Positions 2 through 40,266 of a DNA stretch of 64,000 bases are shown here, one piece after another. The number at the start of each line of letters is the position of its first letter. The stretch's first letter is position 1. The stretch comes from a virus (taxonomy: Duplodnaviria; Caudoviricetes): IMG/VR virus record IMGVR_UViG_3300025934_000015, positions 56,839-120,838 of that record; one strand, written 5' to 3'. A program made the translations under genes and the position numbers. Below the pieces are notes generated by a model. It did no database searches. It saw only the letters and a list, made by a program, of their open reading frames with translations, and was not told where the DNA came from.

Positions 2-841
2 GATTACGACCTCTGTCAGGTGACGGTCGCCGGGACCAACATGTTTTGTACCGAGTCCTTGCGTGAGGCTAAGGTCGGGACGAAGGAGTATAAGGAAGGC
101 GTCCCCCGGATCGAGATGCCACAGTTGGCCGGTCTGCCCGAACCCGGATCCGAAGCCGACAACCTGCCGAAAAATGCCAAGGGTGAAGTGGACGCCAGCG
201 CGCACTTTATCCACTTCCTCCAAGGCATCGGCATGAAGACGACCCACGAAGAAGTGCCTGCGGAAAAACTCCGCGCGTCACAGCGCGAGTTAGTGGGCCA
301 GAACGTGGGCGGCATGATGCGGAACAAGGACTTCGATCCCGCCAAGGATCCGATCTTCATCTCCAGTGATAACTACGTGGTGGACGGCCACCACCGCTGG
401 GCCGCAACCGTCGGGCGTGACGCGGAAGATGGCCACCTCGGGGACTCCACGATGAAGGTCCGCCGCATCAACGCGCCGATCTCTGAAGTGCTGCATCTGG
501 CGAATGAGTATTCGAAGCGCTTCGGCATTAAACAGAAGGGTGTTGGCGCAGGCGCGCGGCACGCGGGTGGTTCTGGCTCAGGGAACTTCGGTCATAGCGG
601 ACGCCCTGGAGAAGTGGGCGGATCGGCCAATAAGGACTTCGAGTCCTACATGACTGCCAATCCCCACAAGAGCACGTTCGAGATTGGCATCGAAATTCCG
701 CTCGAACGCAAGGGCAAGCCACAGATGGCGAAGTTAGTCCGCAAGGAACATCACGGCGAGGAGTGGCGCATTCATAACGAACGAGGCCAATACGTCTATT
801 CCGAAGGCTTCCGCTACGTGACTGAGCATCGCAAGAAATGA
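2..841 (+). CDS. Head-region polyprotein 1 (5'-truncated): ParB/Srx-like module, tag peptide, small unknown module
   Basis: Frame is open from base 2 (DYDLCQVTV...). ParB-like PIFISSDNYVVDGHHRWAA; tag peptide at 566-625; stop overlaps the next ATG (ATGA). Confidence 0.85.
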   Translation, partial: DYDLCQVTVAGTNMFCTESLREAKVGTKEYKEGVPRIEMPQLAGLPEPGSEADNLPKNAKGEVDASAHFIHFLQGIGMKTTHEEVPAEKLRASQRELVGQNVGGMMRNKDFDPAKDPIFISSDNYVVDGHHRWAATVGRDAEDGHLGDSTMKVRRINAPISEVLHLANEYSKRFGIKQKGVGAGARHAGGSGSGNFGHSGRPGEVGGSANKDFESYMTANPHKSTFEIGIEIPLERKGKPQMAKLVRKEHHGEEWRIHNERGQYVYSEGFRYVTEHRKK

Positions 842-3800
842 TTCAACTGCCACTGTCCCCAGACGTCGGCGCGCGGGTGCTTACCCAGGCACTCCTGCGG
901 CTTCGTCTGCTCGGCGGTCCCGGCAGTGGTAACTTCGGGCACAGTGGACGCCCGGGCGAAGTGGGCGGCTCCAGTGGTGAGCGACAACCCCAGGGCGATG
1001 AGGAAGACAACGATCTCAAGGCGCGTACCTTCTTCCATGGCACGCACTCGCTGAGTGTGCAGGACATTCTCCAACAGGGACTGTTAGTCGGCCATGCGGG
1101 GAAGATGTGGCCGAGTTTCTCCTCGCGCGAACATACATACATCACGACCGACCACGACAACGCGGAACACTGGGCCGAGTCGGCGGTGCAGAAAATGAAG
1201 ATTGATCACCGGGATGCGGAGATCTATCCGGTGATTTTGACTGTGCGCGTGCCGCCCGAGTACGCGCGACGTGTGGTGCAGGATTCCCACTTCCCTGAGC
1301 CCGGATCCCCGGCGCGGCAATTCAAAGGCAACATCCACCCCTCGTGGATCATCGGCGCGAAGATGGGTGCGTGGGACGATGATGCGGACGGCATTGTATG
1401 GAAGGACGTATCGCGGTCGTCCCCGATGCCACGCGCCGCGGCGGACGCCGACACGATTATCCACATTGTCCTGTTGCTGACGTCGAAGAAGTTGCGGACA
1501 GCCGGTGGTCCTGGCTCGGGCAACTTCGGCCACAGTGGACGCCCAGGACAGGTGGGCGGTTCTAGTAGCGCATTGACGGATAGCACAACGCATCCGGCCG
1601 ACATGTCCTTCGAGCAGTTCCAAAAGCCTGTGCCGTTGCCTCCCGTTCCGGAGGGCCATATTCGGCTGTCGCATGTGACGTCCGCCGAGAATGTGCCGAA
1701 CATTCTGCGCGAAGGGTTAAAGCAGTCCAAGTCGAAGGGGGCGTCCTACGGCGAGCCGAGTGTAGTCTGGGCCACGACGCATGGTGAGACGTGGGGCGGC
1801 GCACTGGACGCCAACGCCCGCGAAATCATTTTTGACATGCCGACGAAGGACGTCAGCAGTGCGGGCACACTGCATCGCATGGCGGATGTGCCGCCAGAGG
1901 CGATTGTCTCGGTGGAGCGCGCGGGATTTAGCGATGTGTCCACCGGCGCGTTGACCCTCCGGCAGGAACGGAAACACGAGGATCTGAACACGCGACGCCA
2001 GTACTGGGAAGCCTACCAGCGCGAGAAGCCCAAGTCGCCCCTGCCGTTCCGTCCGCCCGGCGTCTACGACGAGAAGGGGCGGTTGATTGCGCCGGTACAG
2101 TCGCAGCCGCACGCGCGGCCGTCCGGCCCGTGGGACATGAACCGTGCCGCCGGAGGTCCTGGCTCGGGAAACTTCGGCCACAGCGGACGTCCCGGACAAG
2201 TCGGCGGATCGACGTCTGGCGACGATGCGCGTATTGATAACCTCGAATCCTTCGACAAAATTCAGGTAGGCGACTACACGGTCCGTCGGGACATGTATGG
2301 CATGTGGGTCGTGTACAACGACCACAGTCACGCCGCGTTTGAGGATGCGCAGGGTGCCAAGCTGTACCTGCGGTCCAAACAGACGGCCGTGAACGCCGAC
2401 CCGCATACGCTCGACGTGCCCGTGTCCATCTACCACAATTCGCCAGACCAGTTTGCGGAAAATAAACCCACGTTTGGTGCGTACTTCGGGGATGAGCATT
2501 TCCTTAAGGCGTTTCCGAATGAATGGGGCGAGCACACGTATAAGGTCACACTGCCGAAGGGCAGTAAGGTGTTAGACCTGGGTAAGGATACGCCTGAGGC
2601 CCGGGAGTTTATGGCGACCGTGGCCGGGATTGCGTATCCGAAGGATCCTGGCATTGCGGACTGGCAAGCGCGACTTCGACAGGGCGATCCTGCGGCCAGT
2701 AGCTACGATGAATTCTACGAAGCGTGGACAGATAAGAAAAACATCCTCGGTGCGTTGAAACAGCACAAGGGCTACGATGCGGTCCGCTATCAGTCAGAGT
2801 ACGTGTTGCCACCAGAGACCCTGAAGAAACTCAAGGGCACGAAACTGAAGACGGCGGAAGTGTTCAGGACGCTCGGTGGATCGGGGTCCGGTAATTTCGG
2901 CCACGCGGGACGGCCGGGTGAAGTTGGGGGATCGGTAACAGAGGGTGGACCTAACGGGGAATCGGAGCCATTACACGCGGGCCCGCGTATTGGATTTGTA
3001 ACCCCGACAGGTCAAGAACGTGTCGCTAGTAAAACCAGTGGCGGTATTGGTGGTTACGGTGAAGACCATACGGATCTTGCACGACGGTTGATGGACGATG
3101 AGAACGGCGGCGTACAACCGGCATTGAAACAGGGGTACTTACGCTATTGGGTGCGTAATGGCGAGATTGCACTCAACTTTAAGTCTGGTCAACCAAATAC
3201 CGCATCTAACGCTCTTCGATTCATCAAGGAAAACGTTCAGGACGGCGATCGCATTTACCTCGACATTGAACATCCCCATGGCGATAACGTTACGCTTGGA
3301 GGATTCTTCGACAACCCTCGTGAAGCCAATCAGGCGATCCGTCGTGCAGGTGGACTGAAAACACTTGGGGGCCCTGGCTCCGGTAACTTCGGCCACACCG
3401 GACGGCCCGGCGAAGTCGGCGGCTCCTCGGGTGGTGAACTGGGTCCGCGTCCAACGCCCATCAAGGTGTCGAAGGTCAAGGACGCCATCCCGCTCATCCT
3501 CCAGGGCAAAGTCGTCGAGCTGCCGAACGTCCGCAAGGTCAATGTGCTGATGCAGCGATTGGCCAAGATCGCGAAGGACGCCAAGCGACAGGGTAAGGAC
3601 GCGCCCTCGTATGATGCGTGTCAGATCGTGGTGCCGGGGTCCAATATCTTCTGTGGTCAGCACCTTGTGACCAAGGAATACCCTAACGGCATGCCCCGCA
3701 TTGTCATGCCGCAGTTTGCTAGTGAACCGATTCCTGGAACGCCTGCCGATAAACTGCCGCGCGATGCGAAGGGAGTGGTCGATGCGGGTCCGGAATTTAT

Positions 3801-6800
3801 TGATCATCTGGCATCACGCGGTATCACGAGTACACGTGTGGACGTCCCCTCGGCGTCCCTGCGGCCCAGTCAGGCGCAACTCGACGGTCCCAAAATCGCC
3901 AAGCGCATGGTCCAGAAGGACTACCGGCCCAGTAGTCCGATCTTTATCTCACGTGACGGTTACATCGTGGATGGCCACCACCGTTGGGCAGCCGTGGTCG
4001 GCCGCGACGCCGAAGACGGACACTTAGGCGACTCCACGATCCGCGCCTACAAGATTGACGCGCCGATCAGCGAGATCCTGAACATTGCGAAGACCTGGAC
4101 TAAGACCTTTGGGCTCGAACAGAAGGGGATTGGGCGCGCGGCTGGTGGACCCGGGAGCGGGAATTTCGGCCATAGCGGACGGCCGGGTGAAGTCGGTGGA
4201 TCGTCCAGTGAGGGCGGATCAGCCGTCACGAAAAGTACGCCGTTCAAACGATGGTTCAAACAATCCAAAGTCGTCGACGCGGAAGGCAAACCGCTGGTCG
4301 TCTACCACGGTACGACGCATGACTTCGACACGTTTGAACCGGCGGGCTCGGATAAGTACAACATCGAATCCGACTTCGGCGCAGCCGCCTATTTCTCCAA
4401 CTCCGCGTCGGATGTATCCGAAAACTACGCAGGTGTAGGGCCGGATCTCACGAGCCGTCTGGAACAGCGTGCCGACCAACTGACGAGCGAGAACGACGAG
4501 CTGGATCATGAGGCCGCACTGAAGCAGGCGCGCGAGGAGTTAGTGGGCCGGAGCGGCGCGCTGGGCGTGCCCGTCTATCTGTCGATGCAAAACCCCTTTG
4601 TGCTGGGGGACGCGTACGACGAGGATCATCCGGTCAAGGAAACCTACCTCACGCACGAGTATGTCTACGACGATCCCAATGACCCCGATTCTGACATCGT
4701 GGGTGAGGAAGGCACGCTCGTCGACTTTATCACCGCGTTGAAGGATGAGGCTGGGCAGTTCCACGATACCGAAGGCGTTGATGACTTCCTGACGAAGTTA
4801 GCGGATAACAGCTTTGATGGCATGCACGCCAGTGAACTCGACAAACTGTGGCGCACCACGGAAACGACTGCCTATGTGACCGACGATCAGGGGCGGCTGG
4901 CAGGCAACGAACTCTATCGACGTGCGCTGGAGCGCGCAGGGTTCGATGGCGTGATTGACCGCTCGGTCGATACGAAGTTTGGCTCGGCACGGCGCATTGG
5001 TAAGCAGATGATCGGTGTGACTGCCGATACCGAACATTACATCGTCTTCAAACCCCAGCAGATTAAGTCCGCTATCGGGAATCGGAAGTTTAACCCGAAG
5101 AGTCCCGTGATCACGCTCGGTGGTCCGGGCTCCGGCAACTTCGGTCACGCCGGACGGCCCGGTGAAGTCGGGGGCTCTGGCGTAGGCGACAGTACCGCGC
5201 ACTTACCGGAATCGGTCGCGTATGTCCTGCGGGCGCGCGAACAGAAATTAAAGGAACTTGACTACGAAGCCGCCGCTATTCTCTCACCTACGGGCGAGGT
5301 GGTGAATTATATCTCCAGTTACGCGAAGGACTACATCACGATCGATGAAAAGTTGAAGCCAAGTTTGGCCGATACCATCTTTACCCACAATCATCCGGGC
5401 AGTAACGGTCTGAGTCTGGCGGACGGCGACGTGGCGGTTAACCTGAATATCCGCGAGATACGAGCGATTGGCGCGGATGGGCGTGTGCATAGTCTGCGAC
5501 GCGAGGGCGACCGTTGGCCGGACAATTTTATGGCCCTGGTGCGTGTGGCGGACTATGAAACGCAAAAGACCTTTTCTGAGGAGATCCGCGCCGGACACAT
5601 GACGATGCAGGAGGCCAATGCGAAGCACTACGATCATGTGTACGCAACGGCTGTAGCAAAAATCCCTGGTGTCGCGTTCGTGATGGCTCCCAGTCTGCCG
5701 GTGGTCTCGGAGGTCCATGTCTGAGATCATTTTGATTGACGATCGTGAGTTCCGGATCCCGGTCTACACCGAGGAGAGTGTCCGCACACTCGGCGGTCCC
5801 GGCTCGGGCAACTTCGGCCACAGCGGACGCCCTGGCGAGGTGGGGGGCTCCGCGCCCGAGGACGGACCGGCCATCGGTGGCAGCATCCGCGCGCAAAAAG
5901 AGGAAGGCGTGCGCCGCGTCGAAGCGCTCCTCGACAAGGCGGTCAAGTCGGCGGACTTTACGGTCGCGGGTGACGAGAGTTATACCGAAGACGATTTGAC
6001 CTGGAGTGATTTCTCCAGTACGCAGCAGGATCGCGCATTTGAAAATTTCCGTGACCAGTCCTATAACGAAGGCGTGGAGGTTGATGATAGCGAGATCATC
6101 AGTGACCTCTACAAGGACTTATACCGCGATAACGAGAAGGTCGTCGAGGAGGCTTCACAGAAGTTAATCGACGACATCAATAATCCGGAGTCCACGGTTC
6201 AGGCGTTTCAGCAGACGACCGAACTGCCGTTTACCACGGAGAGTGGCGAGCCCGCGCCGGTGGTGCAGCGGTTCTATCTCGATCCCGACACGATCGAAGC
6301 GGAAGAAGATACGGGCGATGGCGCGCCCCTCAATGAGGACGCCCTGCGTCTGACCAATGGTGAGGAGCTGACGCCCCAACAAAAAGAAGCCGTGGACATG
6401 CTCTGGTCCCATCACTACGAAGCGGAGATGGACAAGGCCAAGGAGCGGGTGACCGAGAGTGACGAATACTCCGAGCGCCGCAATGAGTTAGAGTCTGAGG
6501 AGATCGATAGTCAGTGGAATAACATGTCCGACTCGAAGAAGATCGACTATCTCGATCAAAACGACAAGGACGCTGCACTCGAAGAGAAGGCTGGTACCGG
6601 AACTGAAACCTTAGACAACTCCGAACCCGATAACTGGATTGTCGATACGGAAGTCGAGGAATCCACCGGCCGCGCCACGGATGAGAGCAAGCGGGAGGAC
6701 TACGACAAGACCCGCATTCTCGCGCGGAAGCTGGCCGAACTGCGCACATCGGAGATCCTAACTGAACGCGGGTTAAGTACGACGGGCGCGGCGGACATTC

Positions 6801-8746
6801 CCCGCAGTGTGTGGGAGGCGTGGAAAGGATCGTCGACGAGCGACTTAGGATTGGCATTGCAGTTAGCCGCCGCGGAAGAACTCGGTGGACACCATCGGCT
6901 GAATGAGCGGGAAGTGAGTCACGCACGACAAATCGCGGATCAGCAATTTGGTATTCAGGTGCCGTTTGCAGATTTACCCAAGGCAACACAAGATCAGGCG
7001 CATGAACGCTACGTACGTGAATTTGCGGACTACGAGGTGCAGAGTTTCAAAACGCAAAACGATAACGCAAAAGTGCCCTACACCGAAGCCGATGTCCAAG
7101 CCTACCGTCAGAAGGCGGAGGATCGGTGGGAAAAAGGGTGGGAGTCACTGTCTGGATATGGTAAGACGCAGTACGCGAAGGAAAAAGGTCTGGACCAGAA
7201 TCAGTCCGGCATGGAGCGCCTGAAAGCCTACACCCGCGCGCAGTGGGAGACTACGCAATTCCTGATGGAGAAGGCCGAAAAGCCCTACGCGGAAGTCTAT
7301 CGCGGTATCATTCTCCCCAAGGACGATCTCGACAAGACCACCAATCTGACGGTCCCGCATCCTGATCGACCGACATTCGCGACCGACGCCGATCGTGAGA
7401 AGTACGAAAAGTATTACAAGCAGAATCTGCCGGACTATGTGCAGCTCCCGGATATCGAGATCAAACGCAATGGTGCATCATCCACGTCATCGAATGCTGA
7501 CGTGTCGAATAATTGGGGCGGCGCGGGTGGGTGGAAGGAACAGCCTCGGGGATCACAGCGCGTGGTCCTGCGCTTCCAGGCTCCGGCCACCTCGCTGATT
7601 TCGATTCCGGTGTTTGGCCAGAACCTGCACAACGAATCCGAGTACGTGCTGATCGGCACGAAGGACAAATGGAACTGGGACGCGTGGCGCGGCAAGGCCC
7701 CCACGTTCGAGCAGCATCCGATTGGCGGACGAAAGGTGTCTGGCGTGAAAGCGGCGGAAGAAAAGAAAATGCTCGTCATCGACATGGCCGAGCACGACAA
7801 GGGCCCGCACTGGTTGACCGAGTACCGGGACCAGCGCGCGAAACCCCGCTATGCCAAACGTCGGCCCGAGACGGCTGTCCACGCCGCGGCCGATGCGCAT
7901 GTCGAAGTGATGCGGTCCGCGGCGGTCAAGGCCTTCAAGGCTGGACGCGCGGCGTTGAACGTGCCGCTCTTGCGGTCGGCACTGACCTCAGGCAATCGGA
8001 CCAGGGCAGTCAAGGCCGTGGCTGCTGTCCCTGGTGCGATCCGCGCGAGCCTCCTGAAATCGTTGCCGGGTCTGCTGTTGAAGATGGCCGCGAAGGGCGG
8101 ACAGGCGAGCCTCAACACCTTGCGCGTGCGTACGCGCACGATCCGGCATGCCGAACGACGCGCCGCGCGTGCGGCCGGTCTCGCAGAACCCCGCTACGCC
8201 GCCATCGAGTTTGACTGGGGCTTCGATGACAGTAATCCGCGCGCCCAGAAGTGGGCCCGTGAGCACGCCGCGGAGTTGGCTAAGGGCATTTCCGACACCA
8301 CGCGGGACGATATTGCGGATGCCCTGGTCGCCGCGTTCGACGAAGGCGGCGATACCAATACGTTGATTGAATCCATTAGTGAAGCTGTAGGCGACGAGGA
8401 TCGAGGCGAGTTGATTGCCGTGACGGAACCGATGATCGCTGTGCACGAAGGTCAACGCGAGGCATGGCGACAGGCAGTTGACGAAGGGGGACTGCCCCCG
8501 GACGCCCAGCGCGAATGGATCACGACCGGCGACATGAAGGTCTGTCCTGAGTGTGAGTCGTTAGAGGGCACGACCGCTGACGTGGACGGGCTCTATCCGG
8601 ATCCTGGCGGCGAAGGCCCACCACTTCACCCTCGGTGCCGCTGCACGGAAGGTATTGCGGCCCCGCGTGCGCGCGGGCGCGGACTCGGCGGTCCCGGCAG
8701 TGGCAACTTCGGTCACGGCGGACGCCCTGGACAGATTGGTGGGTCA
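566..8746 (+). repeat. Ten dispersed copies of a 60-nt coding repeat for GG[PS]GSGNFGHxGRPG[EQ][VI]GGS
   Basis: Copies start at 566, 913, 1504, 2152, 2875, 3367, 4144, 5119, 5792 and 8687. Peptide nearly invariant, third codon positions differ. Confidence 0.97.
838..5724 (+). CDS. Polyvalent polyprotein 2 (1628 aa): seven tagged modules, namely four ART-like, one unknown, one ParB-like and one JAB/MPN-like
   Basis: FFHGT..ILQQGL; SHVT..NILREGL; YHNS..GAYF..GYDAV..EYV; VDGHHRWAA; FKRWF..SKVVD..PLVVYHGT..GFDGVI..FKPQQIKSA; FTHNHPGS..S..D. Confidence 0.88.
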   Translation: MIQLPLSPDVGARVLTQALLRLRLLGGPGSGNFGHSGRPGEVGGSSGERQPQGDEEDNDLKARTFFHGTHSLSVQDILQQGLLVGHAGKMWPSFSSREHTYITTDHDNAEHWAESAVQKMKIDHRDAEIYPVILTVRVPPEYARRVVQDSHFPEPGSPARQFKGNIHPSWIIGAKMGAWDDDADGIVWKDVSRSSPMPRAAADADTIIHIVLLLTSKKLRTAGGPGSGNFGHSGRPGQVGGSSSALTDSTTHPADMSFEQFQKPVPLPPVPEGHIRLSHVTSAENVPNILREGLKQSKSKGASYGEPSVVWATTHGETWGGALDANAREIIFDMPTKDVSSAGTLHRMADVPPEAIVSVERAGFSDVSTGALTLRQERKHEDLNTRRQYWEAYQREKPKSPLPFRPPGVYDEKGRLIAPVQSQPHARPSGPWDMNRAAGGPGSGNFGHSGRPGQVGGSTSGDDARIDNLESFDKIQVGDYTVRRDMYGMWVVYNDHSHAAFEDAQGAKLYLRSKQTAVNADPHTLDVPVSIYHNSPDQFAENKPTFGAYFGDEHFLKAFPNEWGEHTYKVTLPKGSKVLDLGKDTPEAREFMATVAGIAYPKDPGIADWQARLRQGDPAASSYDEFYEAWTDKKNILGALKQHKGYDAVRYQSEYVLPPETLKKLKGTKLKTAEVFRTLGGSGSGNFGHAGRPGEVGGSVTEGGPNGESEPLHAGPRIGFVTPTGQERVASKTSGGIGGYGEDHTDLARRLMDDENGGVQPALKQGYLRYWVRNGEIALNFKSGQPNTASNALRFIKENVQDGDRIYLDIEHPHGDNVTLGGFFDNPREANQAIRRAGGLKTLGGPGSGNFGHTGRPGEVGGSSGGELGPRPTPIKVSKVKDAIPLILQGKVVELPNVRKVNVLMQRLAKIAKDAKRQGKDAPSYDACQIVVPGSNIFCGQHLVTKEYPNGMPRIVMPQFASEPIPGTPADKLPRDAKGVVDAGPEFIDHLASRGITSTRVDVPSASLRPSQAQLDGPKIAKRMVQKDYRPSSPIFISRDGYIVDGHHRWAAVVGRDAEDGHLGDSTIRAYKIDAPISEILNIAKTWTKTFGLEQKGIGRAAGGPGSGNFGHSGRPGEVGGSSSEGGSAVTKSTPFKRWFKQSKVVDAEGKPLVVYHGTTHDFDTFEPAGSDKYNIESDFGAAAYFSNSASDVSENYAGVGPDLTSRLEQRADQLTSENDELDHEAALKQAREELVGRSGALGVPVYLSMQNPFVLGDAYDEDHPVKETYLTHEYVYDDPNDPDSDIVGEEGTLVDFITALKDEAGQFHDTEGVDDFLTKLADNSFDGMHASELDKLWRTTETTAYVTDDQGRLAGNELYRRALERAGFDGVIDRSVDTKFGSARRIGKQMIGVTADTEHYIVFKPQQIKSAIGNRKFNPKSPVITLGGPGSGNFGHAGRPGEVGGSGVGDSTAHLPESVAYVLRAREQKLKELDYEAAAILSPTGEVVNYISSYAKDYITIDEKLKPSLADTIFTHNHPGSNGLSLADGDVAVNLNIREIRAIGADGRVHSLRREGDRWPDNFMALVRVADYETQKTFSEEIRAGHMTMQEANAKHYDHVYATAVAKIPGVAFVMAPSLPVVSEVHV

Positions 8747-9190
8747 TCTAGCGATGATGAAGGGGATGACGAAACGCCCGCCACGACCATTAGTGGGAAA
8801 GACCTTAAGGAAAACATGACCGGCGATCTGGCAGCCGTGGCCCAAAAGGTCTACGACGAGTGGCAGGTCGATCCGAATCAGCCGGAGAACGATGACCTCT
8901 GTGGTGGTGGGATTTGTCATCTGATTGCCGATGAAATGGTTGGCCATCTGTCAGACAAAGGCATCGAGGCAACCACCGTCAGCTCGCAGATTGGGGAACA
9001 GCATGTCTGGGTCGTCGCGAAGTTAGCAGATGGTGTGTACTCCATCGACATCCCGCCCGGCACGTACGAAACGGGCGGCGGTTATTCGTGGCAGAAAATT
9101 CCTGACGTGACGATCGATAAGCGGGACGTCGTGGTGGATCTCGTCTCTCCGAATCCCGAGAAGTTCACCGAGTTCACCGACGAGGGTTAA
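5717..9190 (+). CDS. MuF (SPP1 gp7/Mu F) minor head polyprotein with an R-S-E-type ART module and a C-terminal Cys-His-Asp module
   Basis: MuF motif REWITTGDMKVCPEC...PPLHPRCRC; VYRG..STSS..ESEYVL; GGICHLIA..HVW..IDI; tags at 5792 and 8687. Confidence 0.88.
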   Translation: MSEIILIDDREFRIPVYTEESVRTLGGPGSGNFGHSGRPGEVGGSAPEDGPAIGGSIRAQKEEGVRRVEALLDKAVKSADFTVAGDESYTEDDLTWSDFSSTQQDRAFENFRDQSYNEGVEVDDSEIISDLYKDLYRDNEKVVEEASQKLIDDINNPESTVQAFQQTTELPFTTESGEPAPVVQRFYLDPDTIEAEEDTGDGAPLNEDALRLTNGEELTPQQKEAVDMLWSHHYEAEMDKAKERVTESDEYSERRNELESEEIDSQWNNMSDSKKIDYLDQNDKDAALEEKAGTGTETLDNSEPDNWIVDTEVEESTGRATDESKREDYDKTRILARKLAELRTSEILTERGLSTTGAADIPRSVWEAWKGSSTSDLGLALQLAAAEELGGHHRLNEREVSHARQIADQQFGIQVPFADLPKATQDQAHERYVREFADYEVQSFKTQNDNAKVPYTEADVQAYRQKAEDRWEKGWESLSGYGKTQYAKEKGLDQNQSGMERLKAYTRAQWETTQFLMEKAEKPYAEVYRGIILPKDDLDKTTNLTVPHPDRPTFATDADREKYEKYYKQNLPDYVQLPDIEIKRNGASSTSSNADVSNNWGGAGGWKEQPRGSQRVVLRFQAPATSLISIPVFGQNLHNESEYVLIGTKDKWNWDAWRGKAPTFEQHPIGGRKVSGVKAAEEKKMLVIDMAEHDKGPHWLTEYRDQRAKPRYAKRRPETAVHAAADAHVEVMRSAAVKAFKAGRAALNVPLLRSALTSGNRTRAVKAVAAVPGAIRASLLKSLPGLLLKMAAKGGQASLNTLRVRTRTIRHAERRAARAAGLAEPRYAAIEFDWGFDDSNPRAQKWAREHAAELAKGISDTTRDDIADALVAAFDEGGDTNTLIESISEAVGDEDRGELIAVTEPMIAVHEGQREAWRQAVDEGGLPPDAQREWITTGDMKVCPECESLEGTTADVDGLYPDPGGEGPPLHPRCRCTEGIAAPRARGRGLGGPGSGNFGHGGRPGQIGGSSSDDEGDDETPATTISGKDLKENMTGDLAAVAQKVYDEWQVDPNQPENDDLCGGGICHLIADEMVGHLSDKGIEATTVSSQIGEQHVWVVAKLADGVYSIDIPPGTYETGGGYSWQKIPDVTIDKRDVVVDLVSPNPEKFTEFTDEG

Positions 9191-10372: not shown

Positions 10373-10525
10373 ATGGGATTACTTGAAGTGTTGATCCTTG
10401 TGATCTTCCTGCTATGGCTGGCAGGCTTTGGATTCGGCGTGGCCGGATCCTTGATCCACGTCCTGCTGATCCTTCTAATCATTCTCGTCATTGTGCGATT
10501 ACTTCAAGGACGGAACGTACTATGA
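10373..10525 (+). CDS. lmo0937/DUF5670-like small membrane protein
   Basis: MGLLEVLILVIFLLWLAGFGFGVAGSLIHVLLILLIILVIVRLLQGR fits the LWL.G....G..IH.LL...QGR pattern; RBS GAGGAG. Confidence 0.75.
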   Translation: MGLLEVLILVIFLLWLAGFGFGVAGSLIHVLLILLIILVIVRLLQGRNVL

Positions 10526-12741
10526 TCAAAAAAGAGGGCGAGAAGTGGATCCTCTATACCAAAGACGGATCCAAGAAACTCGGCACGCACGATTCCGAAG
10601 GCGACGCGAAGAAACAAGAAGCCGCCATCGAAGCCAGTAAGCATCGTGCGGCAGCGGACGCTGAGCACTTTCGCGCGTTGGTGGCGAATCTCGATGTGAC
10701 CACCCTGGCGCGGAAGCCGAACAAGGACGAACACCCCTTCACGTACTGCATGCAGGTCGTGGTTCCGGCCATCGAAGAGAAACAGGGCGCGATGGACAAT
10801 CCGGAGGCGTTCTGTGGCTGGTGGAAGGGCGAGCACGCATACGAAGCCGCGCAGGCCAAGACCCTGGAGGGTAAGGAGTCTCGCACGGTCCATCTGATGG
10901 GCGCGACCGGTCAGATTCGCACGGCGACGTTTGAAAACAAGGATTACATGGTGGTCCCGGTCGTGGCCCTCATGGAGGGCGTGATTCACGCCATCAACGC
11001 CGAAACGCCGGAGTACGTGCCGCTGGCGTGTCTCGCGTGCGCGCCGCAGGGATGGGACGGTCGCCCGGTGGTCCTTGGCCATCCCGTGAGAGACGGTCAT
11101 CAGATTTCCGCCAATTCACCAGAAGTCCTCGAATCGCAGTCCTTTGGTCGAATCTTCGGTGCGCGCCTCGACGGCAAGAAGTTGATGCTGGAGGCGTGGA
11201 TCGATCCGGTCAAGGCGGAGCGCATCGGCGCGCAGGAGATTGTCACCAAGCTGCGCGAAAACAAGATGTGCGAAGTGTCCGTCGGAGCCTTCGTGGTGAC
11301 GGACAAAACCGCAGGCATGTATGGCGACAAGCCCTACAAAGCAGTCTGGCGGGACATCGTGCCGGACCACTTGGCCTTTCTCCCCAAGGGCATTGGTGCG
11401 TGCAGCAACGAAATGGGCTGCGGATCCCCGCGGACGGCCATGGCCCATCTGATTACCGCCGAGGGCTTCGAGACCTTGGCGTTTCCCTTCCAGAAAAAGG
11501 AGGACACCGCGGACACCGATTGGGCCGCGAAAGCCGATGCCGCTGAAGCGGCCGCGACGAAAGCGGAGAAGGCGGGAGATACCACCGAAGCGGCTAAGCA
11601 ACAGAAGTTGGCCAAGGAGTATCGAACGAAGGCCAAGGCCATGAAGGCTGCACAGTACGGCGATACGCCAAATGAAGCAGCCTCCGAGGAGAAGGCGGAG
11701 CTGATTGCCTACCAGACCATGCGCACGCTGTGCGACCAGATTGGCGAGTCGTACGATGCCATTTCCGAAATCGTCGACGAGCTGATTGCCGACGAAGCCG
11801 ACAACCCAACGCAGACTCCCGCCGAGGAGGCTGCGGAAACCGAAGTGGAGACCGCTCGGCTGGAGTCGCTACAAGTGCTGTGCATGTCCCAGTACAGCAC
11901 GCTCAACGCCCTCATGAGTCTCACCACGGATTGTCTGCGGCCGGAACCGGCACCAGACGTGGCTCCGCGGTACATGGCGGGAGCACGCCACTCCGCCACC
12001 GATCGACAAATCATCCAGCGCGTTCACGACCACGCGGTGTCGTTGGGCGCAGAGTGTAGCGGCATGGAGGCCCGAGCCGCTGAAACACCGCGTGCCGATT
12101 CATCCACGCAACAGCCGGTCCCCGTACCGGCGGAGGTACGAGACATGGCTTGCACATGCGGAAAAACCACAAAAGGAGAGGCGATGAACAAGGAGCAGCG
12201 TACGGAACTCATCAAGACGCTATGCGCCGACAAGCATAGTGGGTTCACCGAAGCCGATTCCAAGATGTTGGAAGCGGCTCCCGACGAACGACTCGAATCC
12301 TTCCGTGTCGCTGCTGCGGCGCGGGCCAAGGAGGTCGAGGAGAAGACCAAGCCCGCGACCGAACCGGCACCGAAAGTCGCGGAATCGAAGCCCCTCACCG
12401 AGGACGACTTCATGAAGGTCGCCCCGGATTCGCTCAAGTCGCTCATCGCCCGCGCGCAGGCGCAGGATGCCGCCCACAAGACCACGCTCGTCGCGGACCT
12501 CAAGACCGCGCAGAGCGAGTACTCGGAATCGGAACTCGCGGCTATGTCCATCGACGCCCTGGAGCGTCTGAGCCGCGCGATCGGCCGTCAGGTCGAGCAG
12601 CCGACGTCGTACGCCGGGCGTGGTGTGCCGCGCGCCGCTGCCGCGCCGGAGAAGGACGTGTACACGAATCCGCCGAACCCCTACGAAGAGGGGCTGAAGA
12701 AGCTGCGCGCCTCCAGCGGGTTCGCGGAACAGACCGCGTAA
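10522..12741 (+). CDS. Prohead maturation protease (DUF2213-like) fused to a scaffold
   Basis: GRPVVLGHP, EVSVG, IVPDHLAFLPKGIGACS..GCG; acidic, Ala-rich helical C-terminus; lies before the decoration and capsid genes. Confidence 0.8.
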   Translation: MIKKEGEKWILYTKDGSKKLGTHDSEGDAKKQEAAIEASKHRAAADAEHFRALVANLDVTTLARKPNKDEHPFTYCMQVVVPAIEEKQGAMDNPEAFCGWWKGEHAYEAAQAKTLEGKESRTVHLMGATGQIRTATFENKDYMVVPVVALMEGVIHAINAETPEYVPLACLACAPQGWDGRPVVLGHPVRDGHQISANSPEVLESQSFGRIFGARLDGKKLMLEAWIDPVKAERIGAQEIVTKLRENKMCEVSVGAFVVTDKTAGMYGDKPYKAVWRDIVPDHLAFLPKGIGACSNEMGCGSPRTAMAHLITAEGFETLAFPFQKKEDTADTDWAAKADAAEAAATKAEKAGDTTEAAKQQKLAKEYRTKAKAMKAAQYGDTPNEAASEEKAELIAYQTMRTLCDQIGESYDAISEIVDELIADEADNPTQTPAEEAAETEVETARLESLQVLCMSQYSTLNALMSLTTDCLRPEPAPDVAPRYMAGARHSATDRQIIQRVHDHAVSLGAECSGMEARAAETPRADSSTQQPVPVPAEVRDMACTCGKTTKGEAMNKEQRTELIKTLCADKHSGFTEADSKMLEAAPDERLESFRVAAAARAKEVEEKTKPATEPAPKVAESKPLTEDDFMKVAPDSLKSLIARAQAQDAAHKTTLVADLKTAQSEYSESELAAMSIDALERLSRAIGRQVEQPTSYAGRGVPRAAAAPEKDVYTNPPNPYEEGLKKLRASSGFAEQTA

Positions 12742-13252: not shown

Positions 13253-14239
13253 ATGAGGTTTCAAGTCAACGATCACGATCATCCGCTCCAGACCGCGCTC
13301 CTGCGGGCAGCGGAACAGACAGGCGAGCTGTCCATCGCATCGCTTCGGTCACTGTCACCGCTTTCCGATAAGGCCCAGGTACTCGTCGACCGTGCGGTCG
13401 TCAGCGTGGGCCTTCAGCGCCTCGTCGTCGCGGCCGACGTCATGGCGGCAGGCCTGACCTATCCGCTCACCGATCCGTTGTCGGTGACACAGCTCGAATG
13501 GGAATCCATCTCGAAGACCGGCGGGGCACAGCGCACCATGAACCCGTCGGCGCGTGGTGAATTCCAATTGCCCAACCGTTCGATCAATCGGCTGCCGATT
13601 TATCTGACGACCGACGACTTCAGCCTTGGCATTCGCACGCTGAAGATGTCGCAGCGCGTCGGTCAGCCGCTCGACACGACCCTGGTGGAACAGGCGACGC
13701 GCCGCGTCAACGAGGCCATCGAGGACGCGATGATCAACGGCTCGGGTCTTGTCGTGGGTGGCTACGGTGCGCCTGGCATCTTGAACGCGCCGAATGCGAA
13801 CACGTACGACATCACGGTGAACTGGAACGCGGGCGCGACCGGCGACCAGATCCGAGTGGATACTATGGCGATGATCAGCCTGTTGCAGGCCGATCTGAAG
13901 TTCGGCCCGTACAACTTGTACGTCGGCACGGCGTATGGCAACGCGCTTACGGCCGACTTCAAGGCCAATGGCGATAAGTCCATCATTGCCCGCCTGCAGG
14001 AAATTCAGGCCGGTGGTCGTGGTCTTCAGATCAAGGTGGCGGACCAGATGCCGACGACGACGGTCGCGCTGATCCAGATGACCAGCGACACGATCGAAAT
14101 GGTCGTGGGTCAGCCGCCCACGGTCATTCCATGGACCAGCCTTGACGGGTTCACCCTCTTCTGGTTGGTCATGGCCATCATGGTCCAGCGCGTGCGCTCG
14201 GATTACGACGGCAACTCCGGCATCGTTATCGCCACGTAA
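13253..14239 (+). CDS. Major capsid protein (HK97 fold, encapsulin/linocin-like type)
   Basis: 328 aa with strong codon bias; LPI..DFSL..R, PLDTT, G.LNAPN, FGPY.LY; position in the head module. Confidence 0.85.
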   Translation: MRFQVNDHDHPLQTALLRAAEQTGELSIASLRSLSPLSDKAQVLVDRAVVSVGLQRLVVAADVMAAGLTYPLTDPLSVTQLEWESISKTGGAQRTMNPSARGEFQLPNRSINRLPIYLTTDDFSLGIRTLKMSQRVGQPLDTTLVEQATRRVNEAIEDAMINGSGLVVGGYGAPGILNAPNANTYDITVNWNAGATGDQIRVDTMAMISLLQADLKFGPYNLYVGTAYGNALTADFKANGDKSIIARLQEIQAGGRGLQIKVADQMPTTTVALIQMTSDTIEMVVGQPPTVIPWTSLDGFTLFWLVMAIMVQRVRSDYDGNSGIVIAT

Positions 14240-20278: not shown

Positions 20279-23200
20279 GTGGCTGAAGGTGGATTCCTCG
20301 ACATCGGCACCCTAACCGGCACCATTGAACTGGATGACCGTCTCACCGGCACGTTTGAGACGGTCATCCATAGTATCGAGAAGTTCGGAGAGGACTTTCT
20401 CGGATCGTTCAAGGGGATCGCGTTAGGACTCGGCCTTGTGACCACGGCCTTGACAGGCATGGCCGCAACGATTAGCACGTTGGCGGTCAAGGGGTCCGAG
20501 ATCAACGATGTCAAGGAAGGCTTCGACCGGTTGTCTGGTGGCGTAGAGCAGGCGGATGCCTTGATGCAGGCCATGCGTCAGGGCGTGGTCGGAACGATTA
20601 ACGATCTCAATCTCATGCGAGACGCCAATCGTCTGCTCTCCGCGGGCGTGAAGGCGAACGCCTCGGATTTTCAAACGTTGACGACAGCCGCGCATGTGCT
20701 GGCCAATGAAGGCTATGGCAGCATTGAAAACGTGCTCGGATCCCTGAACCGGGCTATGATTACCGGATCCACCTTCCGGATCAAACAGCTTGGCGTCTCC
20801 ATCGACGCGACAAAGGTGGAACGGGAATACGCCGCCTCCTTGGGACTTTCGGCGCAGCAACTGACACGCGAGCAGACCCTGGAGGCCATGCGTGGAGCGA
20901 TCCTCGAAGAATTGAACAAAAAAGTACAGGCCGCGGGAGAACTGCACCTGTCCTTTGCGGAAAAGTTAGATGCGGCCCTGACGTCCCTCACCAATTGGTC
21001 GCATGAGTTAGAGTCCTTGATTGCCGCCTCGCCCAACGTCAATGCGGCGTTCGATGCGATTGCTGAGGCGATCAAGGATGCGTTTGGCACCGAAGGTCAA
21101 ACGCTCATGCAGACCATTGTGGGCTGGGTCAACACGTTTGCCGACGTTGTGCGGACGTGGGCCCCACCAATCATTCGCTTCTTCGGAGAAATCAAGGATA
21201 CGATCAAAACGCTGTGGAACACTATCGACGCCGCCTGGGACTCGCTGCCGGACTGGTTGAAAACGGTGGTCAAGGACGCCACGGTTGCGGCGGGTGCGCT
21301 GTGGCTCACCGAGAAGGCGCTGGATAGTCTACTCGGTAAGGTCGCCAGTGCAAAAAATCTGGGCATGGGCGGGGAAGGCGGCGGAGGTGGTGATGCACTC
21401 GGTAAAGTCTCCAACATTGGCACCATTACATCTGCCCTGATTGATAGTGGCAATGTACTCCAACGCATTGGTACCCGGTTAGGCGGGCTGACCGGAGCCG
21501 TAGCGACGATGGGCGAGTCGTTCTCCAAGGCGCGCACGTGGGTCAACAGTCTCGATGAACCTCTGTCGATGGTTGCGGCACGTGCGAAAGGCGCAGAAGG
21601 TACCCTGAGTTTATTCCGGAACTCCACGGTATTGACGGGCGTAGCGACTGGGAGTCTCGCTGTGCCACTGGCACTGGTCGCGACGACGATTGCGTCCTCC
21701 ATTGCGGTCTATAAGGCGGCATCGGAAGCGATTGGATTGTATCATGATAAACAGGCGCGGTTAGCGGCCGACGAACGGCAGGCGCAGACCGACCGCGATA
21801 ACATCAATAAGATCACCGCTCTGACGGGCAAGACCTACACCAATCTTGCGGACGCGGTGAAGGACGCCAACAAATACATCGAGGAGCATAAGGGTAAGTG
21901 GACGGCTGCCCAAAAGGCGGAAGAGGCTGCGAAGGCCATTGCGGAAGCGCATACCAAGTCGGTGGATCAGATTGTCATGTCCCTGGCCGCGCAGGCCACG
22001 CACATAGACGAAACGGTGGACGTCTTCAACAAACTGACGACGACCCAGAAGTTGAATCGTGATGTGCAAGACGATTTGCTCAAGCGCATGGAAGCGCAGA
22101 TGGAACACGGTCAGCGGTTGACCGTGGAGCAACAGCAGTACTACGAAATGATCACGCGCAGTCGCGCCGCCGACGTGGCGTATGCTGCCGGGAAGTTAGT
22201 CCTGGATGACGTCACGAAACAGTCAATTGTTAACCTCCGCGAGCTGAATAAGTCAGAGGCCGAGATCGCACAGGCCCTGGGCCTGACCACCGAACAGGTT
22301 CGCAACGCGCAAAAGCCTTTGTTGGAGCGCATTGCCGCCCTGGAACGGGAAGGTCTCAGCGAAGCGGCCATCAACGAACGGCTGGGCGTGAATGCGGCCA
22401 CGCGCGCGAAGGTGACTGAGGAGATCAAACGTCAGCAGGACGCACAGGACATGCTGACGACCTCGACGGATAACTACAATCTCGCCTTGAGCCACGGTAG
22501 TTTTACCGCGTGGAAAAAAGATCAAGACGACAAGATGGCAATTGAAATCCGCAACCTTCGGCAGTCCAAGGAGTGGACGCAGGAAAAAGAGGACGCCATC
22601 CAACAGAAGTACCGCCAGACCACCGATGTCAAGAAGATGCAGGACCGCGAGGCCATTGAGGGGTCGAAAGACGCGGCAGTAAAGGAACGCGACTTCGCCA
22701 AAAACAAACTCGACACGATGTTAGACGATATTACCAATTTCCACGCGGAGGACGTACAGGCCGCGCAACAGGATTACAACGAGAAAGCACGGGCGGTCGA
22801 GCACTGGTCGGCCTCGGCCTCGGAGGCCGAAAAGAAAGCGGCGGAAGCGGCCAAGCAGGCGTCCGACGAACGGATTGCCGCCCTCAAGAAGGAAATGGAC
22901 GCGCAGCAGGAATGGGCGGATCATTGGCATAGTCTGACCGTCACGATGACACGCGAACAGGCGGAAGCGATTGCCAATACCAGCGGCGGTGATATGTGGG
23001 CCGAGTTCTTCCGAGCCGTAGCTCGTGCCTCGATCAAGGCGCTGGACGAAGCGGAATTGAAGGCCAGCATGGCGCAGTTCCGGACCCGTCAGGAACTCCA
23101 GAAGACTGCCGAGTTAGCGAAGAAAACCTACGATGCAATGTTGGCCGCTGGTAAGTACACCGCGGAAACCCTGCAAGAGGCGTGGAAGCGGTACACCGAT

Positions 23201-29771: not shown

Positions 29772-29774
29772 CGC

Positions 29775-31871: not shown

Positions 31872-31880
31872 GAGTGCGAT

Positions 31881-32216
31881 ATGGCGAATAGTTCATATAC
31901 CCAACAGGCACTCGCGGCCGACGAATCGTTTCGTCTGCGCATCAAGAACGCGCTCGCGAGCGTTGCGTGGCAGGTGCTCACCGAACAAACCAGCGTTGAG
32001 CACCATCAGGCCCGCGCCGACTTCGCGCGCAGTGTGACGGCGAACCTCGACGGACACGCGGCGACAATTGCGCCATGGTTGGTGACTCGTCCGAACCTAA
32101 TCGGGTTCGCAACCTCGTACGACTTCGAGCGCCGTGCCATTGTCACAGCCTCCGGCGACCCCGACATCGAATCACAGATTGCCACGGACTGGAACATCAT
32201 TGCAGGGTTGGCATGA
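31881..32216 (+). CDS. Hypothetical tail-associated protein
   Basis: RBS GGAG; tightly packed after the fibre gene. Confidence 0.65.
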   Translation: MANSSYTQQALAADESFRLRIKNALASVAWQVLTEQTSVEHHQARADFARSVTANLDGHAATIAPWLVTRPNLIGFATSYDFERRAIVTASGDPDIESQIATDWNIIAGLA

Positions 32217-32599
32217 TTCAAACAACCCTCGGACGAATCTTTGAAGCGGAACCGGCATTGACGCGGTTACTCGCGATCAAGTTTGACAAGCCGAATGGTG
32301 CAAAGCTGCGGTACCATGTGGTCAAACTCGCGCAGCTTGCCCAGGTGGAACTAGCGCATTTTTACGAGGAGCGCAATGCTCTGGTGGAGAAATTTGGCGA
32401 GGGCGACCCAAAGATTGTGACTCCGACGTGCGCCCACTGGTCCGAATACCTTGTAGCAGTGAATCAGTTAGGGGCCGTGCCGGTGAGCCTTTTTGTGGAC
32501 CCCATTACAAATTGTATGGTTGAACCGTACCCCGAGATAATGGGCACGGATCTCATCGCCTTAGGTCCGTTATTTCTTCTGGAGGAACCTGCCGTATGA
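32213..32599 (+). CDS. Putative fibre chaperone
   Basis: Helical; YEERNALVEKFGE; ATGA overlap. Confidence 0.55.
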   Translation: MIQTTLGRIFEAEPALTRLLAIKFDKPNGAKLRYHVVKLAQLAQVELAHFYEERNALVEKFGEGDPKIVTPTCAHWSEYLVAVNQLGAVPVSLFVDPITNCMVEPYPEIMGTDLIALGPLFLLEEPAV

Positions 32600-40258: not shown

Positions 40259-40266
40259 ATTGAAAA

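Follow-up and report, generated by a model that had tools for sequence, protein, structure and literature searches.

A conserved 20-residue peptide in the head-region polyproteins of an uncultured tailed phage and its possible role in a protease junction signal

Cargo genes and their tagged modules

We analyzed a window of 64,000 nt, corresponding to bases 56839-120838 of the 120,838-bp record IMGVR_UViG_3300025934_000015, which represents an uncultured Caudoviricetes phage (~121 kb). Based on Pfam and PHROG matches, the head module has the gene order portal, cargo genes with a MuF domain, protease-scaffold, and major capsid protein; i.e., a portal gene (Phage_portal_3) lies upstream of the cargo genes, and the protease-scaffold and capsid genes lie downstream. 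The HK97-type major capsid protein (13253..14239; this and all other features given here are on the + strand) matches Pfam DUF6260 and Linocin_M18 and the PHROG major head protein. The three overlapping cargo genes A, B, and C encode proteins of 720, 1628, and 1157 aa, and all copies of a 20-residue peptide, referred to here as the tag, are confined to them. The initial annotation listed ten copies of this peptide (GG[PS]GSGNFGHxGRPG[EQ][VI]GGS), and a degenerate DNA pattern matched exactly those ten starts, all on the + strand, with no matches in dinucleotide shuffles. Based on the translations, each of the ten is in-frame within three consecutive ORFs. Two extra copies are located just upstream of the window, giving 12 in total; in a six-frame profile scan of the whole genome, these 12 scored 36-52 bits and the next best candidate 5 bits, so there is no other copy. 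The claim that codons differ between copies while the peptide is held was also borne out: the fraction of identical codons is 0.455 compared with 0.338 expected from the genome codon usage, and Ser5 is encoded by both TCN and AGY codons. Judged from their sequences, the 12 copies are under selection at the level of the peptide.

The 3' part of gene A occupies 2..841, and its GTG start is 1,321 nt upstream of the window. Two of its three tags lie just upstream, where the window edge truncates the gene, and the third (copy 3; 566..625) is preceded by RHA. The module order in gene A is 2H phosphoesterase (Pfam 2_5_RNA_ligase2, E 9.6e-15), an unassigned module of 119 aa, a ParB-like module, and a 71-aa tail. 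Gene B (838..5724), the start of which overlaps the gene A stop codon by 4 nt, encodes a 25-aa leader and then seven tags, each heading a module of 144-305 aa. Copy 4 (913..972) follows the leader and is preceded by RLL, copy 5 (1504..1563) by LRTA, copy 6 (2152..2211) by RAA, and copy 7 (2875..2934) by FRTL. Copy 8 (3367..3426; preceded by LKTL) heads a ParB-fold module, copy 9 (4144..4203; preceded by RAA) an ART-PolyVal module, and copy 10 (5119..5178; preceded by ITL) the last module. Gene C (5717..9190), as defined by ORF translation and Pfam, encodes a 25-aa leader, copy 11 (5792..5851; preceded by VRTL), an acidic region, an unassigned middle, a MuF domain, copy 12 (8687..8746; preceded by RGL), which begins 13 residues past the end of the MuF domain, and a C-terminal module of 147 aa.

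Based on hhalign, the modules are mostly unrelated to one another, and with the 2H phosphoesterase, ParB fold, ART-PolyVal, and MuF domains identified by Pfam or fold searches, two or more unrelated effector domains occur in one polypeptide. The claim that each copy sits at a module boundary held up: homologues of the modules in other proteins never run across a tag, and the AlphaFold pLDDT of the tags and the lengths of the stretches past the last tag in multi-tag proteins (both given below) agree with it. The module labels of the initial annotation fared unevenly. ART-PolyVal and MuF are confirmed by Pfam: module B6 (4276..5085), an ADP-ribosyltransferase of the polyvalent-protein type, matches PF18760 at 69.3 bits (cut-off 31.2; E 7.5e-19), and aa 865-977 of gene C (8309..8647) match the MuF/SPP1 gp7 minor head protein domain PF04233 at 37 bits (cut-off 29.6) together with several PHROG head-morphogenesis families, while the match to TIGR01641 scores below the cut-off of that model. 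The ParB/sulfiredoxin fold of module B5 (3427..4143) is supported by its nearest atlas cluster, which carries ParBc_2 in 57% of its members (score 0.96), by Foldseek matches to Srx and ParB-N (probability 0.85-0.97), by VIA (Z 6.0-7.3), and by an AlphaFold model with a pLDDT of 85-97; the ParB-like module in gene A is a paralogue of B5 (hhalign probability 100). Among three modules labeled ART-like, two have remote profile similarity to ART-PolyVal, while the third was backed by no tool, and the same holds for the labels JAB-like, R-S-E ART, and Cys-His-Asp, which came from motif reading. Searches against Pfam, PHROGs, and NCBIfam found no peptidase family in genes A, B, and C, and no recognized capsid anchor is present in genes A and B.

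The neighboring protease and the residues before the tag

The gene for the 775-aa protease-scaffold protein (10414..12741) sits between the portal/MuF genes and the capsid gene. Its product matches Pfam DUF2213 at 25.1 bits (cut-off 22) and represents a divergent DUF2213. In the AlphaFold model, the DUF2213-like core at ~aa 165-335 has a pLDDT of at least 90, and its best Foldseek match is T4 gp21 (5JBL chains A-C; E 3.5e-6 to 9e-6; probability 1.00; TM 0.61-0.67 on target), while the next match has an E of 0.028. As modeled, the product has a prohead protease core with the T4 gp21 fold. His94, Ser160, and His190 (alignment A2 numbering), the candidate catalytic residues, are invariant in 18 sequences. 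The C-terminal half of the protein is rich in Ala, Lys, and Glu, helical in composition, and contains eight copies of a hydrophobic-[RK]-[ATVH]-[LA] motif.

Directly before the tags in this phage, we found a related motif of three or four residues, hydrophobic-[RK]-[AT]-[LA]; just 5 of the 12 tag sites match the strict four-residue pattern, and the others are near matches. This motif occurs 11 times in the phage's own protease-scaffold protein compared with 1.6 expected (~7-fold), a count reached in none of 5,000 shuffles, and elsewhere in the genome it occurs once per 551 aa. The enrichment was seen again in the scaffolds of seven other phages with L or A before the tag (L/A-type) and was absent from N/Q/H-type homologues and from other ORFs. 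It depends on the order of residues, with 74 forward matches, 5 in reverse, and 8-16 for permuted orders. Moreover, the N-terminal region of the phage's own capsid protein contains two conserved copies (LLRAA and SLRSL), and in the N-terminal regions of capsid and portal proteins the motif is conserved in L/A-type phages only. In the K, D, and N clades, a position-matrix test gave no enrichment (ratios 0.5-1.1), the motifs there being weakly defined and the power low.

The residue preceding the tag is uniform within proteins (purity 0.91 compared with 0.24 expected). It is K in 13/13 S78-like loci, which encode an HK97-type protease, D in 21/21 canonical DUF2213 loci, and L or A in 9/13 divergent DUF2213 loci, the type found in this phage. 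Among whole records classified by Pfam, S78 is present in 15, each of them K-type, and in none of the ~59 non-K records. In HK97, the type system for S78, cutting takes place at K103/S104 (PMC10275583). As read from these sequences, the preceding residue tracks the protease family, an association confounded by shared ancestry. The initial annotation had proposed that the polyproteins are cut into tagged effectors; because a protease of the gp21 fold is encoded next door, the preceding residue is specific to the protease family, and the motif is enriched in the scaffold and in the N-terminal parts of capsid and portal, cutting at each tag is likely, and this part of the proposal is probable.

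A protease acting in trans is not the only conceivable means of cutting. The Asn-Phe-Gly-His core of the tag resembles autoproteolytic motifs, and Asn cyclization underlies cutting at the NPTH site of FlhB/YscU and at the Asn-Phe site of tetravirus capsids. Nevertheless, we give hardly any credence to the tag being a self-cleaving element of this kind: entire lineages with otherwise intact tags have His, Phe, Tyr, or Asp in place of the Asn, and the preceding residue tracks the family of a trans-acting protease.

Distribution and possible roles of the tag

A profile search with the 20-mer, a check proposed earlier, returned 5,606 protein clusters at E ≤ 1e-3, nearly all metagenomic; 897 of these had E ≤ 1e-10, a score requiring more than one tag copy, and as many as 10 tags are present in the best-scoring proteins. 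In line with the initial annotation, which knew of no described function for the peptide, it has no match in Pfam, NCBIfam, and PDB sequences, and no description was found in the full-text articles searched. Among cultured phages, the tag is absent from the records inspected, i.e., those of a protease relative and of two ART-PolyVal carriers (Mx1 and a PB1-like phage). A tblastn search of 50,697 phage records with the tag as query gave no match, an outcome probably due to low-complexity filtering. Over 181 copies, 16 of the 20 positions show little or no variation, among them Asn, Phe, His, Arg, and Pro. A length of 20 residues with this degree of conservation far exceeds the needs of a protease site, which counts against the junction signal proposed below. 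In other proteins too, the tag stands at the front of a module in nearly all cases and hardly ever behind one, and in 117 multi-tag proteins the stretch past the last tag has a median length of 295 aa (5th percentile 138 aa). Genes A-C lie in the head module, as was claimed, and tagged genes elsewhere usually adjoin MuF, portal, terminase, and protease genes: of the flanks retrieved for 114 viral loci, 56 contain MuF, 51 a portal gene, 34 TerL, and 12 DUF2213, and in whole records MuF is present in 33/40 and DUF2213 in 22/40. Tags also follow MuF, portal, or protease domains within the same chain.

Different phages carry the modules in shuffled, mosaic combinations, and the tag is Gly-rich, followed by Gly/Ser-rich sequence, and predicted to be disordered (AlphaFold pLDDT ~25-32 compared with 85-97 in the adjoining ParB-fold domain). 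These features would suit a passive flexible linker that serves as an in-frame joint for recombinational shuffling of effector cassettes and has no signal role. However, such a linker does not call for near-invariant Asn, Phe, His, Arg, and Pro; DNA homology between tag copies is poor because synonymous sites are close to randomized; and a linker explains neither why tags only head modules nor why the residue before them goes with the protease. We consider a mere linker very unlikely.

The initial annotation viewed the peptide as a putative capsid-packaging or ejection address. Two further observations bear on the possibility that the tag serves solely as an address for capsid targeting or ejection, like an encapsulin cargo-loading peptide, with the chains packaged uncut and the preceding residues being lineage-specific parts of the address. 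Stand-alone tagged proteins have leaders of just 6-35 aa and share nothing besides the tag, and the tag is common to phages with differing portal, capsid, and protease families, as would be expected for an address. On the other hand, a tag at each junction would be needless in a chain left whole, the scaffold and the N-terminal parts of capsid and portal contain the upstream motif but no tag beside it, and the spacing between motif and tag is zero in every clade. These points make a pure address decidedly unlikely.

Tag-bearing contigs fall into bins of Firmicutes, Proteobacteria, Bacteroidota, Chloroflexi, and archaea. The invariance of the tag across these phages would fit a very conserved target, and the tag would stay on the released module; it could work after injection, either as a handle for a universal host factor or as a stabilizing or activating N-terminal cap, in which case the position next to the cut merely exposes it. 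Yet each protein carries a uniform tag variant, with differences seen from lineage to lineage (identity in variable columns of 0.58 within and 0.38 between proteins), which points to a phage-encoded reader of the tag, and tags also occur inside protease-scaffold genes, the products of which are not expected to act in the host. We therefore regard a function in the host as unlikely.

A more general idea, which we put forward only tentatively, is that tailed phages of bacteria, and perhaps of archaea, universally use the 20-mer as a portable cargo signal, read by a structural feature that HK97-type procapsids or their assemblin-fold proteases have in common. If this were true, any protein placed behind a protease site and a tag would be loaded, released, and injected; the tag would flag the injected proteome in metagenomes and would provide a general handle to load proteins into capsids.

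Proposed junctions and related systems

On balance, we lean modestly toward the tag being the constant half of a two-part junction signal, in which the prohead protease cuts before each copy and releases tagged enzymes that are presumably injected. The anatomy, distribution, and gene context of the tag, the protease fold, and the co-variation and enrichment statistics are observations, from which we infer how the proteins are packaged, cut, and ejected and what the tag does. In this model, the procapsid most likely incorporates the three polyproteins; gene C would be recruited by its MuF domain, and genes A and B via another element, possibly the tag. The residues before each tag would fit the cutting preference of the phage's own gp21-fold protease, which would cut at the N-terminal edge of every tag. 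The predicted products are 12 pieces that start with a tag (91-965 aa), a 2H phosphoesterase of 199 aa that lacks one, and two leaders of 25 aa. The freed enzymes, including ADP-ribosyltransferases, ParB-like domains, and unassigned modules, would retain the tag as their new N-terminus and presumably be ejected together with the DNA. Because the identical cutting motif recurs many times without a tag, the tag appears to be dispensable for cutting, and the tagless motifs in the scaffold and in the N-terminal parts of capsid and portal set it apart as an element of its own. It probably serves in docking or sorting, keeping the cargo or its junctions at a conserved site on the procapsid or protease.

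These junctions share features with several known systems. The MuF polymorphic toxins of temperate phages, associated with the work of Jamet et al. in 2017, reportedly pair a MuF anchor with an exchangeable toxin domain downstream of it. Similarly, gene C has a MuF domain and then a C-terminal module; unlike those toxins, the polyproteins comprise many modules, include two extra genes without MuF, and have a conserved tag where MuF joins the cargo. Encapsulin cargo-loading peptides are short, Gly-rich peptides on a flexible linker that dock cargo inside an HK97-fold shell. The tag is likewise short and Gly-rich, and the match of the capsid protein to the Linocin_M18 encapsulin family may extend the analogy; however, cargo-loading peptides are terminal, single, and of different sequence.

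The tagged proteins resemble the phage-type polyvalent proteins (Iyer, Burroughs, Anand, de Souza, Aravind 2017, PMC5512222), which are giant multi-effector chains with MuF or portal fusions, their genes lying among those for late/virion functions, as here, and with which they share a domain repertoire (ART-PolyVal, 2H phosphoesterase, ParB-like, Zeta, NUDIX, and GNAT). Polyvalent proteins were proposed to be packaged, processed, and injected, with self-processing by embedded zincin peptidases, which are frequent but not obligatory; a conserved peptide between the domains is not mentioned in the main text of that paper. By contrast, no zincin peptidase was detected in genes A-C, one 20-mer is present per junction, and the prohead protease would be the cutter.

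In T4, internal proteins are packed into the head and injected, and their capsid targeting sequence is removed by the prohead protease gp21 (Mullaney and Black 1996, as cited in PMC10052503). In both cases, a short, portable peptide lies beside a site, here a probable one, for proteases of the same fold. The T4 sequence is found at the N-terminus, ahead of the cut, and is lost, whereas the tag is downstream of the proposed cut, would be retained, is mostly internal, and occurs up to 10 times per protein; moreover, the T4 sequence is confined to one lineage, whereas the tag is conserved over thousands of unrelated phages. In the giant phages SPN3US and phiKZ, a gp21-type protease (SPN3US gp245) cuts ejection proteins, the portal, the capsid protein, and itself at a short motif repeated in propeptides (PMC10052503). 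Those substrates differ in that they lose N-terminal propeptides, have no constant peptide after the cut, and are not chains of unrelated enzymes; the recurrence of the cutting motif in their propeptides parallels the motif enrichment in the scaffold and in the N-terminal parts of capsid and portal of L/A-type phages.

Tag copies and their placement at module boundaries

Phages carry enzymes in their heads and inject them, which disarms the host; to our knowledge, the choice, loading, and release of such head cargo are understood only for a few model systems, e.g., the T4 internal proteins. Here, the 20-residue tag GG[PS]GSGNFGHxGRPG[EQ][VI]GGS is translated in three consecutive, overlapping ORFs, i.e., cargo genes A (..841), B (838..5724), and C (5717..9190). 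The back-translated pattern matches exactly the ten positions listed in the initial annotation, throughout on the + strand, and has 0 matches in shuffled sequence. The window edge truncates the first ORF. The window spans bases 56839-120838 of a 120,838-bp IMG/VR virus record, rated complete by CheckV, and in this whole genome the first ORF encodes 720 aa with two further tag copies, which brings the total to 12 copies in three genes (720, 1628, and 1157 aa). A six-frame profile scan of the whole genome found no weaker copy, with these 12 scoring 36-52 bits and the next best match 5 bits.

Selection acts on the peptide, as proposed earlier, and not on the DNA: nucleotide identity among the copies is 63-85%, Ser5 codons include TCN as well as AGY, and the same codon is used in 45.5% of comparisons vs 33.8% expected from codon usage. 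The Gly12 codon of the tag (window 566-8746) is GGA in 12 of 12 copies, with GGA making up 17% of the Gly codons of the genome. A DNA- or RNA-level role for this codon was dropped because the pattern was not seen in other phages, in which GGA encodes Gly12 in 30% of 212 tag copies, like the background.

The tags had also been placed at module boundaries, and this is borne out by homologues of the modules in other proteins, which never cross a tag. Several near-full-length homologues were found for each of the modules A2 (the third stretch of gene A) and B1, B3, B5, and B6 of gene B, and a tag usually lies ≤40 aa upstream of them; for B7, this was the case for 5 of 14 homologues and, for homologues of the MuF core, never. 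In an AlphaFold model of gene B aa 844-1628, the three tags have pLDDT values of ~25-32 and the adjoining ParB-fold domain of 85-97; the model was too shallow for modules B6 and B7 to fold. Among 117 multi-tag proteins, the first tag often begins at residues 6-35, the median inter-tag gap is 207 aa, and the median length of the sequence following the last tag is 295 aa (5th percentile, 138 aa). Therefore, the tag is a header of modules and almost never a trailer.

The tag DNA pattern is present in more than 114 IMG/VR contigs, at least, among the matches listed. The consensus over 181 distinct copies reads [KDNL]-GG-x-GSGN[FWY]GH-x-GRPG-x-[VIR]-GGS, followed by Gly/Ser/Pro-rich sequence, and positions left free in the search pattern are still 98-99% conserved among these copies. 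At E ≤ 1e-3, a profile search of 1.84 billion representative proteins returned 5,606 clusters, of which 897 also pass E ≤ 1e-10; nearly all clusters are metagenomic and unnamed, and there are up to 10 tag copies per protein. In 185,579 reference genomes, only 41 tag loci were found, from many different bacterial phyla as well as some archaeal bins, and head genes lie ≤8 kb from the tag in 24 of these 41. Prophage-like loci that could lead to a cultivable tag-bearing phage lie in Oscillibacter sp. PC13 and Desulfosporosinus nitrosoreducens. The genes adjoining tag genes encode MuF, large terminase, two portal families, DUF2213 proteins, and HK97-type capsid proteins; on whole records, MuF was found in 33/40 and DUF2213 in 22/40, compared with 0/14 control genomes for DUF2213. 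Tags are also fused behind MuF, usually 3-32 residues past its end, as well as behind portal domains and protease cores. The tag had no match in Pfam models, NCBIfam models, or PDB sequences, and a full-text literature search ('GNFGH'; 'GRPG' + 'phage') returned no paper describing the peptide. A tblastn search with the tag gave no match in 50,697 phage records, for which low-complexity filtering is the probable reason. The ART-PolyVal proteins of the cultured Myxococcus phage Mx1 and Pseudomonas phage USP_18 are without the tag.

Prohead proteases and the residues in front of the tag

Pfam lists DUF2213 without an assigned function. The 775-aa protease-scaffold gene downstream of the cargo genes (window 10414-12741, +) scores above the DUF2213 cut-off, and alignment of its protease core with 17 relatives revealed invariant His, Ser, and His residues. 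AlphaFold gives the core a confident fold, the sole significant structural match of which is the T4 prohead protease gp21 (5JBL; E 3.5e-6, probability 1.00; next match, E 0.028). This match argues that DUF2213 is, by its modeled fold, a prohead protease family, of which one member is encoded here beside the cargo genes. In several relatives, the tag follows directly after the protease core. The cultured archaeal virus Halorubrum phage Hardycor1 (MT152698.1) has a 30%-identical match to the divergent DUF2213-type core (E 3e-15), and the cultured Brevundimonas phage StAshley encodes the same protease type without the tag and without enrichment of the upstream motif described below.

The residue directly in front of the tag is near-uniform within a protein (purity 0.91 vs 0.24 expected; 148 proteins, 637 tags) and varies between proteins (K 52, L 41, R 16, A 15, N 13), and we group the phages by this residue as K-, D-, L/A-, N-, Q-, H-, and R-type. 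Among loci with the protease gene inside the fetched flank, S78-like proteases go with K (13/13) and canonical DUF2213 proteases with D (21/21), and divergent DUF2213 proteases, the type of this phage, go with L (6), A (3), N (2), Q (1), and H (1). On whole records, 15/15 positives for Pfam S78 are K-type, and 0 of ~59 non-K records is positive. The S78-K association has a hypergeometric probability of ~2e-9 with shared ancestry ignored, and all associations reported here are confounded by common descent. In HK97, the type S78 system, the capsid protein is cut at K103/S104 (PMC10275583), and gp21-type enzymes are known to cut after acidic residues (PMC10052503).

The tag is preceded in the L/A clade by four residues of the pattern [LVFIP]-[RK]-[ATV]-[LA]. 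Prohead proteases classically act on scaffold proteins. The 775-aa protease-scaffold protein contains 11 copies of [LVFIPM][RK][ATVH][LA] vs 1.6 expected, a count reached in 0 of 5,000 shuffles; 8 copies lie in its C-terminal half, where 0.9 is expected. The capsid protein has 3 copies vs 0.5 expected, the rest of the genome has one per 551 aa, and there is no enrichment inside the cargo modules. Seven other L/A-type phages have the same enrichment in their protease-scaffold ORFs (6-14 copies vs ~1-1.6 expected), with 0, 0, 0, and 1 copies in four homologous ORFs from phages of the N, Q, and H types and 27 copies vs 31 expected in the other ORFs of the same loci. The excess depends on the order of the residues (74 copies in the forward order, 5 in the reverse, and 8-16 in other orders), which excludes composition and helical periodicity as its source. 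The strict four-residue pattern matches at only 5 of the 12 own tag sites.

Two motif copies in the N-terminal region of the capsid protein (aa 16-34; window 13253-14239, +) are conserved in L/A-type phages, and most L/A-type portals have 1-3 copies near the N-terminus (aa 21-43 here; L009:3739-5562, in sequence of the same virus record upstream of the window). The corresponding capsid and portal regions of non-L/A relatives have no copies. Because these copies are conserved in L/A-type relatives only, they suggest that short N-terminal propeptides may be removed from the capsid and portal proteins. In the K, D, and N clades, the motifs of which are poorly defined, a position-matrix test gave no enrichment. 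For the R-type clade, a search for related loci returned nothing; a DNA pattern fetched 15 loci, in which only one ORF, of 273 aa and unclear identity, has an excess, with 2 motif copies vs 0.1 expected.

A proposed two-part junction

The simplest account of these sequence patterns is a two-part junction, in which a lineage-specific protease site would be followed immediately by the constant 20-mer. According to this model, the polyproteins would be cut inside the procapsid at the N-terminal edge of every tag, here yielding 12 tagged pieces, an untagged 2H phosphoesterase, and two 25-aa leaders, and we infer that the phage's own prohead protease, rather than embedded peptidases, would be the cutter. 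The protease site recurs often without the tag, which argues that the tag is dispensable for cutting and must serve otherwise. The site abuts the tag at a constant spacing of zero, each lineage is uniform in its tag variants (0.58 identity at variable columns within proteins vs 0.38 between proteins), and a short leader, the site, and the tag are all that some stand-alone proteins share. These three features point to the tag as a putative docking or sorting signal recognized by some component of the phage, for which the protease itself and the shell interior are candidates. Asn-driven self-cleavage was rejected, as whole lineages have His, Phe, Tyr, or Asp in place of the Asn, and none of the other motifs considered (AT-hook, collagen-like triplets, and degenerate P-loop) accounts for the invariant His, Asn, and Phe.

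In content and context, the cargo genes encode phage-type polyvalent proteins with a MuF anchor; in mechanism, with the cutting here read from sequence, these resemble T4 internal proteins and giant-phage ejection proteins, both of them substrates of gp21-type proteases. Different from all three, one conserved header peptide, predicted to be retained, lies at every junction here, and this tag recurs in thousands of protein clusters from uncultured phages whose portal, capsid, and protease families differ. Moreover, the probable cutter is a prohead protease instead of the embedded peptidases of polyvalent proteins; the main text of the paper on these proteins mentions no linker peptide and proposes self-processing by zincin peptidases (PMC5512222).

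A junction signal that is conserved and sequence-searchable across thousands of protein clusters from uncultured phages would make it possible to read the repertoire of injected effectors directly from metagenomes, many unknown enzymes and likely anti-defense factors among them. Similarly, the residue before the tag would reveal the cutting specificity of uncharacterized prohead proteases, and its link to the protease family makes what was a descriptive observation open to a specific and cheap biochemical test. The junction could also serve as a simple design by which foreign proteins are loaded into capsids.

Cargo modules and neighboring genes

Split at the tags, the proteins of genes A, B, and C give 15 stretches. 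The first module of gene A is a 2H phosphoesterase (Pfam E 9.6e-15) with weak similarity to Acb1 (E 1.6e-4, below cut-off), module B6 is ART-PolyVal (Pfam E 7.5e-19), and gene C aa 865-977 is MuF (Pfam). Modules A2 and B5 are paralogues with a ParB/sulfiredoxin fold; B1 and B2 have remote mutual similarity, and B1 is also remotely ART-PolyVal-like (hhalign probabilities 88 and 79), while the remaining modules have no relation to one another. The ART-PolyVal and ParB-like labels of the initial annotation hold, and no family library supports the third 'ART-like' label or the 'JAB-like', 'R-S-E ART', and 'Cys-His-Asp' labels. The 'JAB-like' module and the 'R-S-E ART' region had no Pfam match at E ≤ 5, and a PDB sequence search with the former was also negative; for the 'Cys-His-Asp' module, Pfam gave nothing, and Atlas gave a 0.87 lead to an SseI-like family and nothing else.

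A DHH/DHHA1 phosphoesterase gene (L009:2620-3549, upstream of the window; Pfam DHHA1, E 3.6e-7) directly precedes the portal gene. The presence of both this gene and the 2H phosphoesterase with weak Acb1 similarity hints at nucleotide-signal degradation. The portal gene (Phage_portal_3) is followed by three partly overlapping ORFs with no assigned function (383, 927, and 285 aa), cargo genes A-B-C, two small genes, the 775-aa DUF2213-like gene, a 145-aa gene, and the genes for the HK97-type capsid protein and an Ig-like (TIG) protein. The 927-aa protein between the portal and the cargo genes (G000:C1:51464-54247; L009:7465-10248, both handles for sequence of this record upstream of the window) has ~10 copies of the 11-residue repeat TFWQATQPVSG set in Thr/Ala/Ser/Gly-rich sequence, and may be an unusually placed fiber or decoration protein. 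Several very large + strand ORFs (1138, 1608, 698, and 1151 aa) at window 20279-36998 have almost no family matches and are presumably tail or tape-measure and fiber genes. Finally, genes for tRNA-Cys (GCA) and tRNA-His (GTG) lie side by side on the - strand at window 40179-40343.
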